The notes under the pieces: model-generated
The model's database searches: none
What the model was told of the DNA's origin: nothing
The model's input: the letters and a program-made list of their open reading frames with translations, nothing else
Shown: piece by piece, positions 4,383 through 46,079 of the stretch
How positions within the stretch are numbered: position 1 is the stretch's first letter
Layout of the letters: the number at the start of each line of letters is the position of its first letter
Translations under genes and position numbers: made by a program
Origin: Escherichia coli
Lineage (GTDB): Bacteria; Pseudomonadota; Gammaproteobacteria; Enterobacterales; Enterobacteriaceae
Direction: 5' to 3' (one strand)
Length of the DNA: 64,000 nt
Assembly (NCBI RefSeq): GCF_003019035.1
Contig: NZ_CP027447.1

Positions 4383-4934
4383 TTAATATATATCAGAAGC
4401 AGGCAGGCTGGAGGATTTCTGCACAAGTCCGGTACACGTTTGACGCTGATAGTGTTGATACTTCCGTAACGCGATGCGGTAATTGTTGGTGCTGGTGGAG
4501 GGCAGCCACGGGGCGAGGATTTCATCAAGGAAACCGTCCTGCAGCTGATCGAAGGAAATATTTTGCTCGTGTAGATGATTCCCCAAACGGCGCAGACGAA
4601 CGACATATTCACGCACCGTACCAGGGCTCATTTCAGTTTGCTCAAAAAGAAATTGCTTAAAGCCGATAATATCGAAAAAATCACTCTGCGTTTTGCAATG
4701 TAAATCACCGCAAAATCGGCACAATGCCGCCCATGATTGTTGTTCCACTTGCCAGCCGTTTTCATCAAGCAGCGTGTCCAGGCGGGAAATCTCGATTTTA
4801 TTCACTATCTTGCCGTCGCGAACGAGGGTAATGCGATCGAGTAATTTACGGCAATGCGCGCAATGGGTCTGGCTGTGTTTAAAGTCTTTAAGATAGCGGC
4901 TTAATGGCCGTCTTTTCAGGTGCTGCACCATCAT
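4383..4934 (-). CDS. fliZ: flagellar regulator FliZ
   Basis: translation recognised as FliZ; sits downstream of fliA; start trimmed to MMVQHLKRRPL. Confidence 0.9.
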   Translation of the reverse strand: MMVQHLKRRPLSRYLKDFKHSQTHCAHCRKLLDRITLVRDGKIVNKIEISRLDTLLDENGWQVEQQSWAALCRFCGDLHCKTQSDFFDIIGFKQFLFEQTEMSPGTVREYVVRLRRLGNHLHEQNISFDQLQDGFLDEILAPWLPSTSTNNYRIALRKYQHYQRQTCTGLVQKSSSLPASDIY

Positions 4935-27697: not shown

Positions 27698-27784
27698 AAA
27701 TCCCGACCCTGAGGGGGTCGGGATGAAACTTGCTTAAGCAAGAAGCACTTAAAAAATTCGTTACACCAGGAAATCTGATGTGTT
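27698..27784 (-). ncRNA. dsrA: DsrA small regulatory RNA
   Basis: minus-strand 87 nt AACACATCAGATTTCCTGGTGTAACG...CCCGACCCCCTCAGGGTCGGGATTT matches DsrA as I recall it, ending in its terminator hairpin. Confidence 0.92.
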
Positions 27785-34854: not shown

Positions 34855-35550
34855 TCAGCCCGCGGGTGAAAACGCATCTATCACCTTGTGATCGACACCT
34901 TCATTCTCCCCCGCCAGTTCGGCACTGAGCTTCGCCATAAACTCGACTAAAAATTGCGCGTTGTGCTGCGCCAGCTGCTTGCCTCTTGCGGTTTGCATGG
35001 TTTGCGGTAGCTTCAGCAACTTAGTCTGGAAATGATCCAGCGCGTAGCGTTTATCATCAAGCGGACGATGCTGTGCGAACGGATCTTCACCATCAAACAG
35101 CGCCACGCCCAATGCCCCTGAAACGGCAAACACGCGCGCCAGGCCAATCGCCCCCAGGGCTTCCAGCCGATCCGCATCCTGGACGATTTTAGCTTCCGTT
35201 GTTAAGGGGGCGATTTGCGCGCTGAAACTGTGAGCGGCAATGGCATGACAAACGGCCTCGATTTTCTCCGCCGGAAATTGCACGAACTCTTCACGGAGCA
35301 GGCGACGCGTCTCTTCTGCCGCCAGGATTGAAGAACGCTGCCGTTGTGGATGATCTTTCGCCAGGCTCACAATATCGTGAAAATAACAGGCGGTTAAAAT
35401 CACCAGCATATCGACATCGTCATCTGCCGCCAGCTTCTGTGCCGTAGCCCAGACGCGGCGAAAATGACATACGTCATGGGCCGCGTCCTGGTGCTGATGA
35501 TGGTTTTTTAACCAGTTTTCGAACTGTGCCTGCCAGTGTTGTAAGTCCAT
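34855..35550 (-). CDS. yedJ: HD-domain phosphohydrolase
   Basis: ORF trimmed to ATG at 35550 ([10 protein letters not shown]); HD motif present. Confidence 0.9.
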
Positions 35551-35589
35551 ACGCGCTCCGTTGCCAAAGAGTCGCAACCTTAGCAGTTT

Positions 35590-35955
35590 TTATTCATAGC
35601 GTCTGCTACGTGCGGGACGAGGTCGGGTGTACCAGGCAATGCTGCCTAACAATGCCCCGACCAGAGCCATAAATAAAAAGCCGACCAGTGCCCCTAACCA
35701 CTTTCCCGCGGTAGAGCCTAAATCGCTTTCAAATCCCGACACGGGGGCATCGGGGATCCGGCTCATCACCCAGATGTAACGCGCCATTGCCCAGACGAAA
35801 TAGCCACACCATGTATAGAAAGCCCACAAAGCCAGTTTGCCACCAGGACTGCGAGAGAGTCTCTCTTCCATCTTTGTCGAACCGTATTCCATTTTGAGAT
35901 AACCCGGAAAATTCAGACTTAGTACTATTATGTGATAAAAGTCACATTTTTCCAC
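35590..35955 (-). CDS. yedR: inner membrane protein YedR
   Basis: two predicted TM helices; start uncertain (GTG 35955 chosen, TTG 35973 possible). Confidence 0.8.
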   Translation of the reverse strand: MEKCDFYHIIVLSLNFPGYLKMEYGSTKMEERLSRSPGGKLALWAFYTWCGYFVWAMARYIWVMSRIPDAPVSGFESDLGSTAGKWLGALVGFLFMALVGALLGSIAWYTRPRPARSRRYE

Positions 35956-36185
35956 ATTGGATGAGCCAGTCAAGACTCAATCATTTTTTGAACAAATAGA
36001 TAATTTTTGCGCAACGGCAATAATTACCGGAAAAACAGCAATAAAGATTTATTATTATCTATGGTAATGGTTTTATTAATTCACCTAAACAATATATTAG
36101 CACCGAATTCAATTATACCTTTTTTGATTTCTGTGTCATGATAACCCCGTTATTAGCCTTTTATCGTCTTGTTTATATTTTTTGG

Positions 36186-36209
36186 GCCGGCATGATGCCG
36201 GCTTTTTTT
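36186..36209 (+). terminator. orphan intrinsic terminator-like hairpin
   Basis: gccggcatgatgccggc followed by seven T on the plus strand; no annotated plus-strand gene upstream. Confidence 0.4.
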
Positions 36210-36371
36210 ATGTCTTCATTAATGTGCGCGTGATCACATCAGCCGTTTAGCGCAGCAATCATTGATACTTCCTATCTTTCCAATCAACTCATAACATATT
36301 GATATATATTCATAATCTTCATGAATATTTATATCTAGAATTCATAATTTTGAATTATATTAAATAGATTA

Positions 36372-36412
36372 GAAACATTTTGAAATCTTTTAAATACATT
36401 TGTTACATGTAA
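36372..36412 (+). promoter_or_regulatory. OmpR-box-like AT-rich repeats upstream of the porin gene
   Basis: gaaacattttgaaatcttttaaatacatttgttacatgtaat resembles ompC/ompF OmpR sites (TTTACATTTTGAAACATCTA-type); by eye only. Confidence 0.35.
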
Positions 36413-36520
36413 TCCTTAAAATAAAATGAACTTCATAGAATAGTATCCAAATGTGCTTTTTTTTGGATAACGGCACTTATTGATATATTCATGAAGATTA
36501 TAATCACAAGGGAATACATA

Positions 36521-37636
36521 ATGAAAAGAAAAGTTCTGGCAATGCTGGTCCCGGCGTTATTAGTTGCTGGCGCAGCAAATGCGGCTGAAATTTATAATAA
36601 AGATGGCAATAAAGTTGATTTCTACGGCAAGATGGTTGGCGAACGCATCTGGTCAAATACTGATGATAATAACAGCGAAAACGAAGATACATCCTATGCT
36701 CGTTTCGGTGTTAAAGGTGAAACCCAAATCACCAGCGAACTGACTGGTTTCGGTCAGTTTGAATACAACCTCGACGCCAGCAAACCTGAAGGTGAAAACC
36801 AGGAAAAAACCCGTTTAACCTTCGCCGGTTTGAAATATAACGAGTTAGGATCATTTGACTATGGCCGTAACTACGGTGTTGCTTATGATGCCGCAGCTTA
36901 TACCGATATGTTAGTTGAATGGGGTGGCGATTCCTGGGCTTCCGCTGACAACTTCATGAATGGTCGTACCAACGGTGTTGCAACCTACCGTAACTATGAT
37001 TTCTTTGGCCTGGTTGATGGTCTTGATTTTGCGATTCAGTACCAAGGCAAAAACAGCAACCGTAGCACTAAGAAACAAAATGGTGACGGCTATGCGTTGT
37101 CTGTAGACTATAACATCAATGGTTTTGGTATCGTTGGTGCATATAGCAAATCTGATCGCACCAACGATCAAGTTGCCGATGGAAACGGTTCAAATGCTGA
37201 ACTGTGGTCATTGGCTGCAAAGTATGACGCGAACAATGTCTACGCAGCTGTAATGTACGGTGAAACTCGTAATATGACTCCGGGTTCTATTGATACAGGT
37301 GTTGCCGATCGAGAAGGCAATACAATAATGCGTGATCAACTTATCAATGAAACCCAGAACTTTGAAGCGGTTGTTCAGTATCAATTCGACTTTGGTCTGC
37401 GTCCGTCCTTAGGTTATGTGTATTCTAAAGGTAAAGATATCAAAGGTGTACCTGGACATAGATATGTTGACGCTGACCGTGTGAACTACATTGAAGTTGG
37501 TACCTGGTACTACTTCAATAAGAACATGAACGTTTATACTGCATACAAATTCAACATGCTGGATAAAGATGACGCCGCCATTACTGGCGCAGCAGCTGAT
37601 GACCAGTTTGCAGTTGGTATCGTCTACCAGTTCTAA
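36521..37636 (+). CDS. yedS: OmpC/OmpF/PhoE-family general porin (yedS position, intact)
   Basis: signal peptide [22 protein letters not shown]-terminal ...VGIVYQF; 371 aa from ATG 36521 with SD aaggga. Confidence 0.88.
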
Positions 37637-37678: not shown

Positions 37679-37716
37679 AGCCTGAGTTCGTCCCTCATCG
37701 AACTCAGGCTTTTTTA
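37679..37716 (+). terminator. intrinsic terminator of the porin gene
   Basis: 12-bp stem agcctgagttcg / cgaactcaggct followed by a T-run. Confidence 0.65.
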
Positions 37717-38227
37717 TTGGCATTTCATCTCGATCTGCGGCGCACGCAATTGCCAAAGCATATCGATACAGCACCTTACCCCGCCCCCCTGGCTCAATAA
37801 AATCTACCAGCGTCTCTTCCAGCCAACACCCAAATGCATTTCTTTATAAATTTAATCTGTAACAAAACCGCTTCCCATATAGAAATATTTGCAAAAATAG
37901 TGCATGAAAAAAGCTTTTTCTCTGCCAATCCGGGATATAAATATTCATCCGTACCACAATATTCCACAGCACTAAATCTCTCCCCGCCCCCCCGGACTTC
38001 TGATAATGGTCTAAAATCATTGAGGCCACTTGCGACGACGTTGCTCAATAAGGAAAATTTGGCGTGAATAATATTCAACACCAGTGCAGCATCATCATTA
38101 CATACTTACACCCGCCGACTACCGCTTTCGATATATTGACTCAATTTTCCAGCCTGGTTAAAAATAGCGACCAGCTCAGTCGCAAATATAGTGACTACCC
38201 TAACTAAGCAACAATAAGGAATACACT

Positions 38228-45494: not shown

Positions 45495-46079
45495 TTACTC
45501 CCTGACAGGGTTCGTAGGCCACTCAATATCAGGTGCAGTTGATGTATCAACACGGTTCAGCAACACCCGATACTTCTTCCAGGCTTCCAGCAACGAGTTT
45601 TCTTCCTCCGTTGCAATTTCCAGATCTACAGCATCCTGAAGCGGCGCAATATGCTCACTGGCTACCTGCATCAGGCTTTTTTTTGTTTCTTCCGCCTCCC
45701 GGATCCGGAACAGTTTTTCTGCTTCCGTATCCTTCACCCAGGCTGTGCCGTTCCACTTCTGATATTCCCCTCCCGGCGATAACCAGGTAACATTTTCCGG
45801 TAACGGACCGAGTTCAGAAATAAATAACGCGTCGCCGGAAGCCACGTCATAGACGGTTTTACCCCGATGGTCTTCAACGAGATGCCACGATGCCTCATCA
45901 CTGTTGAAAACAGCCACAAAGCCAGCCGGAATATCTGGCGGTGCAATATCGGTACTGTTTGCAGGCAGACCGGTATGAGGCGGAATGTATGCATCACCTT
46001 CACCAATAAATTCACTGGTTCCGGCCAGCAGATTATAAATTTTTATGGTCCGTGGTTGTTCACTCATTCTGAATGCCAT
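45495..46079 (-). CDS. tfa: tail fiber assembly protein (lambda Tfa-like)
   Basis: 194 aa, matches lambda Tfa as I recall it. Confidence 0.9.

Follow-up and report, generated by a model that had tools for sequence, protein, structure and literature searches.

The Rho-independent terminator between drpB and a yedS-type porin gene of Escherichia coli is very probably that of the small RNA gene rseX

Small RNAs (sRNAs) that regulate outer-membrane proteins can be encoded beside a porin gene, as in the pairs MicF/ompC and MicC/ompN, and the rseX-porin arrangement described here resembles them. While micF and ompC are divergent, as are micC and ompN, rseX stands in tandem with its porin gene, upstream of it. 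A second point of comparison is the Hfq-binding module found in sRNAs, which consists of a U-rich sequence, a hairpin and a poly-U tail, according to a passage of PMC4509938 citing Ishikawa 2012; another passage of the same source, citing Otaka 2011, assigns tails of at least seven U/T to the module, and runs of at least seven T are typical at the terminators of Hfq-binding sRNA genes, according to a passage of PMC5558911. A third comparison is with SdsR+44 and ArrS, which repress fepA via the terminator loop, as K-12 RseX+52 does (PMC11979758).

RseX is best described in K-12, and the size of the RNA, its dependence on Hfq, its targets, its silencing by H-NS and the function of its terminator loop are all taken here from published K-12 work. 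The RNA is 91 nt long and lowers OmpA and OmpC (PMC7648144). It binds and represses fimB, ihfB and ompA (PMC8313858), and one passage of that paper places the predicted ompA site in an internal segment, 'region 5'. According to a passage of PMC8313858 citing Douchin 2006, 5' RACE data support a sigma-70 promoter for the gene. It is silenced by H-NS, with StpA as backup; in wild-type K-12 no tested condition gave detectable RseX, and on Northern blots the ~91-nt band, together with a shorter ~75-nt form, appeared only in hns mutants (PMC8313858). The last 40 nt of the RNA (RseX+52, approximately the U-rich stretch plus the terminator) are sufficient for fepA repression, which depends on nucleotides in the terminator loop as well as on Hfq and RNase E; pairing to fepA was not detected (PMC11979758).

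We analysed a 64,000-nt stretch of E. coli DNA (the window) in which the initial annotation had reported an orphan plus-strand terminator at 36186-36209; identity, coordinates, structure, synteny and the conservation of seed and terminator come from the present analysis. Rfam searches of 35500-37000 and of the whole window both gave rseX at this place. The family RF01401 (rseX, "Hfq binding RNA"; gathering score 50) matched 36120-36209 on the plus strand with 97.8 bits (E = 7e-14), untruncated over model positions 1-94 of 94, and the match ends precisely at the T-run. In the K-12 record NC_000913.3, the ncRNA gene rseX (b4603) lies at 2033649-2033739 on the plus strand, with drpB (formerly yedR) on one side and the pseudogene yedS on the other. 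In a pairwise alignment, b4603 maps base for base onto 36120-36209, with eight substitutions and one U fewer, giving an rseX gene of 90 nt in the window allele. We conclude, with a probability of about 95%, that the hairpin and the seven T form the Rho-independent terminator of rseX, the gene for the Hfq-dependent sRNA RseX. The RF01401 match and the b4603 alignment thus give the supposed orphan an owner. The proposal that a short unannotated plus-strand transcript ends here is essentially right, as the terminator belongs to a plus-strand RNA of 90 nt, but that RNA is the known RseX. RseX is already known and the terminator holds no novelty; a prediction of the RNA reportedly dates from 2002, its characterisation from 2006 and renewed work on it from 2021 and 2024.

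The terminator had seemed orphan because automatic annotation (RefSeq/PGAP) omits rseX. Among 5,426 complete E. coli genomes, 4,879-4,902 carry the drpB-yedS region. RefSeq/PGAP places no feature under the rseX match in any of ~4,900 E. coli genomes; only the curated K-12 record annotates the gene. Essentially every E. coli genome save curated K-12 is therefore left without rseX by the standard pipeline, and as a consequence readers of raw sequence will keep "rediscovering" it. Four other Rfam families, STnc430, RyhB, AniS and Bp1_781, gave sub-threshold matches that cover the generic terminator only and were rejected; STnc430, the sole minus-strand match at the hairpin, scored 26.6 vs 47 bits, far under threshold.

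The terminator hairpin occupies 36184-36204 on the plus strand (GGGCCGGCAUGAUGCCGGCUU). Its core stem (36186-36192 with 36196-36202) has seven pairs, six of them G-C, around the loop UGA (36193-36195), and two G-U pairs (36184-85 with 36203-04) could extend it. Directly 5' of the hairpin and internal to RseX lies a U-rich stretch, GUUUAUAUUUUUU (36171-36183), and on the other side follows a poly-U tail of exactly seven T (36203-36209; eight in K-12), so that the plus strand reads UAUAUUUUUU-GG-GCCGGCA-UGA-UGCCGGC-UUUUUUU-AUG. As had been claimed, then, a GC-rich hairpin (36186-36202) is followed by seven T (36203-36209). The claim of plus-strand specificity was also confirmed, in that reading the hairpin on the minus strand leads into CCAAAAAA instead of a T-run. 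A stable GC-rich stem-loop directly followed by a T-run that is confined to the transcribed strand is the make-up of an intrinsic terminator, and an independent terminator scan recovered both the hairpin and the T-run. T-runs flank the hairpin because a U-rich sequence, a hairpin and a poly-U tail constitute the Hfq-binding module typical of sRNAs. All three parts are present in order, first GUUUAUAUUUUUU (36171-36183), then the hairpin (36184-36204) and T7 (36203-36209), and the window shares with the SgrS/RyhB-type module its U-rich sequence, GC-rich terminator hairpin and tail of at least seven U. Identity of sequence with the Hfq-dependent K-12 RseX suggests that the window allele would bind Hfq. 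K-12 RseX+52 has a hairpin and loop identical in sequence to those of the window, whose tail is one U shorter.

Terminator-like arrangements do arise by chance: a scan for them found nine sites in 4 kb compared with 4.0 +/- 1.9 in shuffled sequence, and some of the nine are chance. It could accordingly be asked whether a functionless GC-rich inverted repeat simply happens to lie beside a T-run. The 33-nt terminator segment, however, folds at -14.6 kcal/mol, compared with -6.3 +/- 2.4 kcal/mol in dinucleotide shuffles (z = -3.5), and only 1 of 200 such shuffles matched it. In addition, the terminator is unchanged across Escherichia species though its flanks diverge, the hairpin sits inside a full-length covariance-model match, and it coincides with the 3' end of the mapped K-12 RNA. 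A chance repeat is already refuted by conservation, the Rfam match and the correspondence with K-12, and its probability is practically nil.

The distribution of rseX was assessed in GTDB species representatives by a pattern scan requiring an exact match to an invariant 13-nt core, followed by an Rfam check. The scan returned 41 loci, seven of which are real rseX genes (Escherichia and Citrobacter amalonaticus); the rest, in unrelated phyla, were taken as chance matches to so short a pattern. Above-threshold matches came from E. coli, E. albertii, E. whittamii, two further Escherichia species and C. amalonaticus, and among matches to the exact 13-nt core no rseX was found outside Escherichia beyond that of C. 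amalonaticus. The order drpB (minus), rseX (plus), porin (plus) is kept in all seven further E. coli genomes sampled and also in C. amalonaticus. The C. amalonaticus homologue (locus L028, 1944-2040) scored 70.9 bits in the same yedJ-drpB-rseX-porin context; it carries a 7-nt insertion 5' of the terminator, and the stem base has a compensatory A-U pair.

Mean pairwise identities over 13 Escherichia sequences define a conserved rseX block reaching from ~45 nt before the 5' end of RseX to a point shortly past the terminator. Far upstream of rseX, identity is 0.63; it rises to 0.84 in the promoter, is 0.82-0.89 in the 5' tail and hairpin 1, reaches 0.945 in the seed and U-rich segment and 0.970 in the terminator, and downstream of the terminator is 0.88, then 0.79. 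Seed and terminator are thus the best-conserved intergenic parts outside a porin-proximal island, with flanks at 0.63-0.88, and the seed is nearly invariant across Escherichia. The terminator stem is identical in 14 Escherichia sequences and shows a compensatory change from G-C to A-U in Citrobacter. Covariation support is minimal, amounting to this one compensatory pair, as the sequences are too similar for statistics. A departure was seen in E. coli P276M (locus L050, 553-635), where a 7-nt deletion in the seed changes TTAGCCTTTTATCGTC to TTACCTTCC and the GGG 5' of the terminator is lost; from its sequence, this copy of rseX has probably decayed.

As a whole, the drpB-yedS intergenic region (35950-36530) is unusually polymorphic for E. 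coli. One paper, in which rseX is nowhere mentioned, uses the spacer as a polymorphic marker informative of the host (PMC11267920). It may be of modest specialist interest that a hyper-variable "host-informative" marker nonetheless holds a near-invariant sRNA core and terminator. Past the terminator, 36210-36265 on the plus strand is moderately conserved in Escherichia and contains the palindrome TGATCA (of which GATCAC is invariant) and AATCATTGA; this segment might serve in the regulation of the porin gene or of rseX.

Compared with K-12, the window has the same locus (drpB-rseX-yedS), the same strand and aligned 5' and 3' ends, and the two alleles are identical in the seed and core (nt 28-83), the terminator stem-loop and the module of U-rich stretch, hairpin and poly-U. 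They differ at nt 6-9 (UGAU in the window, AUUA in K-12), at nt 24-27 in the hairpin-1 loop (AACC vs GCUU), in the tail (U7 vs U8) and in the -10 box (TTCAAT vs TACAAT); the downstream porin gene is intact in the window and a pseudogene in K-12. Hairpin 1, the 5' hairpin of RseX (36139-36155, plus strand; stem UGAUAAC/GUUAUUA, loop CCC in the window allele), appears in the MFE and centroid folds and in the Rfam consensus structure, and alignments show that its loop region differs between alleles. The window allele is a minority form, carried by ~3% of the complete genomes of E. coli. When 201 nt are compared, identity to the window reaches at least 99% in only 99 genomes and is 80-95% in most. 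By analogy, we infer that the allele of this strain behaves like K-12 RseX, and rseX may be silent here, as RseX is undetectable in wild-type K-12.

The -10 hexamer of the rseX sigma-70 promoter was assigned by position, at -12 to -7 from the K-12 5' end mapped onto the window, which makes TTCAAT (36108-36113, plus strand) the putative element. Compared with the TACAAT of K-12 and of the majority of alleles, it lacks the A at -11, and the change generates an EcoRI site, GAATTC (36105-36110). Of 5426 complete E. coli genomes, 156-158 contain the promoter-proximal 41-mer in its TTCAAT form and 2504-2776 contain the K-12 form with TACAAT. The -11 A is critical for sigma-70 promoters. Its loss should weaken the rseX promoter, and the window allele could be transcribed still more weakly or from another start; the overlapping AATTAT could substitute as the rseX -10.

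On the opposite strand, a near-consensus sigma-70-like site, ATGACA-16-TATAAT (11 of 12 positions; 36139-36112, minus strand), lies across the start and the 5' end of rseX. Its two hexamers fall in blocks conserved across Escherichia, and the site is distinct from the mapped drpB promoter (between 35955 and 35892). It is the only site in the 64 kb with at most one mismatch, where 0.19 were expected; at least one such promoter-like site arose in 17 of 100 shuffles, so that taken alone it is not significant. That rseX, with its -11 A lost, is controlled through competing, overlapping convergent promoters or through antisense RNA towards drpB, or alternatively that RseX and the intact porin form a cassette co-regulated by read-through, appears quite unlikely to us; neither promoter competition or antisense control nor a read-through cassette is known to have been described for RseX.

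Target pairing was evaluated by a windowed duplex scan with opening energies, a crude stand-in for IntaRNA. The putative seed, RseX nt 37-50 (GCCUUUUAUCGUCU; 36156-36169, plus strand), is identical to that of K-12 and is predicted to pair with ompA from -21 to -7, over the Shine-Dalgarno sequence, at -13.5 kcal/mol after correction for accessibility. None of 25 shuffled sRNAs gave so good an ompA duplex, and the K-12 allele performed alike. The fimB duplex, formed via nt 29-50, is essentially unchanged between the window and K-12 alleles (-17.1 vs -17.9 kcal/mol), and both it and the ompA duplex are unchanged because they use the invariant core. For the translation start of ihfB (RseX nt 12-31, corresponding to 36131-36150), predicted pairing is weaker in the window allele, at -7.9 kcal/mol compared with -14.0 kcal/mol in K-12, because that duplex involves the variable hairpin-1 loop. 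A plausible ompC duplex joins RseX nt 29-44 to ompC from -15 to +1 with a hybridisation energy of -16.4 kcal/mol; it is not significant after the cost of opening the hairpin, and in the windowed scan with opening energies ompC pairing was no better than that of shuffled sRNAs. A minority allele of ~3% with an altered -10 box, an altered hairpin-1 loop and weakened predicted ihfB pairing may likewise be of modest specialist interest.

These data are best explained by the following scheme. Transcription of rseX would start at a weak sigma-70 promoter just upstream, in an AT-rich intergenic region which, as in K-12, H-NS with StpA as backup would silence, so that RseX would normally be undetectable; the GC content of the intergenic region, 20-38%, is consistent with H-NS binding. 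Transcription would stop at the hairpin, yielding an RNA of ~90 nt whose 3' end is fixed by the terminator, and the U-rich stretch, hairpin and U7 tail would act as an Hfq-binding module that stabilises RseX. The single-stranded core (nt 37-50) would pair with the Shine-Dalgarno region of ompA, and overlapping parts of the core with ompC and fimB; such pairings would block translation and lower outer-membrane protein synthesis. For fepA, the terminator loop nucleotides would be required, as in K-12, where pairing to the fepA mRNA was not detected.

The neighbours of rseX bear on other possible owners of the terminator. Upstream, on the minus strand, lies the gene for DrpB, a protein of 100 aa (family score 151.6 bits, cutoff 50), and a YedJ-type phosphohydrolase is also among the neighbours. 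The starts given for yedR at 35955/35973 derive from outdated annotation: the DrpB ATG is at 35892, the old codon 22 (PMC7648144; K-12 annotation). The drpB promoter has been placed between the old GTG and the current ATG (PMC7648144), a position that fits the promoter-like site TGGAAA-16-CATAAT at 35954-35927 (minus strand). The outdated yedR start codon thus still misleads. On the plus strand, an ATG-started ORF of 31 codons (36138-36233) overlaps the region, which might suggest that the terminator serves a small protein gene. This ORF, however, starts within RseX and extends through the terminator past the RNA 3' end, leaving the terminated RNA without a stop codon; moreover, no Shine-Dalgarno sequence precedes the ATG, the T7/T8 polymorphism changes the frame among alleles, and the ORF has no family match. 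The initial annotation was right to dismiss the small plus-strand ORFs as non-coding, and a small-gene role for the terminator is scarcely credible.

Downstream, an intact yedS-type porin gene (36521-37636, plus strand; 371 aa, OmpC/OmpF-like) begins with the ATG at 36521 (MKRKVLAML...), 312 nt from the terminator, in agreement with the ~310 bp noted initially. The porin scores under the OmpF, OmpC and PhoE family cutoffs and is therefore a distinct general porin. The gene is a pseudogene in K-12 and CE10, and in WB61, where the intergenic sequence shows 100% identity to the window, it is frameshifted; in the window a strong terminator (37679-37710) follows it. Terminator and porin gene share a strand with no gene between them, and it had also been proposed that the hairpin attenuates transcription within a long leader of the porin gene. 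On that view, porin mRNA would start upstream of 36120 and the hairpin would be a regulated premature terminator. It is also the case that sRNA terminators are often read through (PMC4509938) and that RNA-seq of hns mutants showed RseX 'and surrounding areas' rising together (PMC8313858). The pattern of conservation argues against such a leader. The porin has an island of its own at 36360-36540 (plus strand; identity 0.93-1.00), with a block of ~150 nt before its ATG that is near-invariant even in E. albertii, and a variable trough at 36240-36360 (identity 0.70-0.83) separates rseX from it. Within the island lies a promoter-like sequence, TTGTTA-16-TAAAAT (36400-36427), preceded by the repeats GAAACATTTTGAAATC ... 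GTTACATGTAATC, which we take to resemble OmpR boxes. The porin leader also contains the inverted repeat AUCCAAA...UUUGGAU (36445-36468). Further against an attenuator, no Rfam leader or riboswitch matched in the region, a structure that would compete with the terminator was absent from the MFE, centroid and consensus folds, the terminator, at -14.6 kcal/mol and with U7, is a strong one, and K-12 makes a discrete ~91-nt RNA (PMC8313858). An attenuator is, in our view, very unlikely.

A looser connection would tie RseX to the intact 371-aa porin, through partial read-through of the RseX terminator or through base-pairing between RseX and the porin mRNA. This idea can draw on the co-orientation of the two genes, on synteny held from Citrobacter to Escherichia, on the leakiness of sRNA terminators (PMC4509938) and on two precedents: micF adjoins ompC in K-12, and a passage of PMC5745476 describes co-regulation of MicC and the quiescent porin OmpN. 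Some read-through into the porin region may indeed occur, because sRNA terminators leak. Pairing of RseX with the leader and translation initiation region of the neighbouring porin (36430-36550) was nevertheless rejected, since it did not exceed chance (88% of shuffled sRNAs paired equally well), and conservation falls between rseX and the porin unit. No significant pairing of RseX with its own neighbouring porin leader is predicted, and we regard a coupling of this kind as unlikely. The reading we prefer is that of a terminator belonging to rseX.

Elsewhere in the window, the Rfam scan matched DsrA at 27698-27784 (minus strand; 102.5 bits) and the IS009 RNA family at 45538-45736 (minus strand; 223.2 bits). 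Between the porin gene and hchA lies an ORF of 95 aa (37794-38081, minus strand), whose equivalent in WB61 is annotated 'hypothetical protein'.
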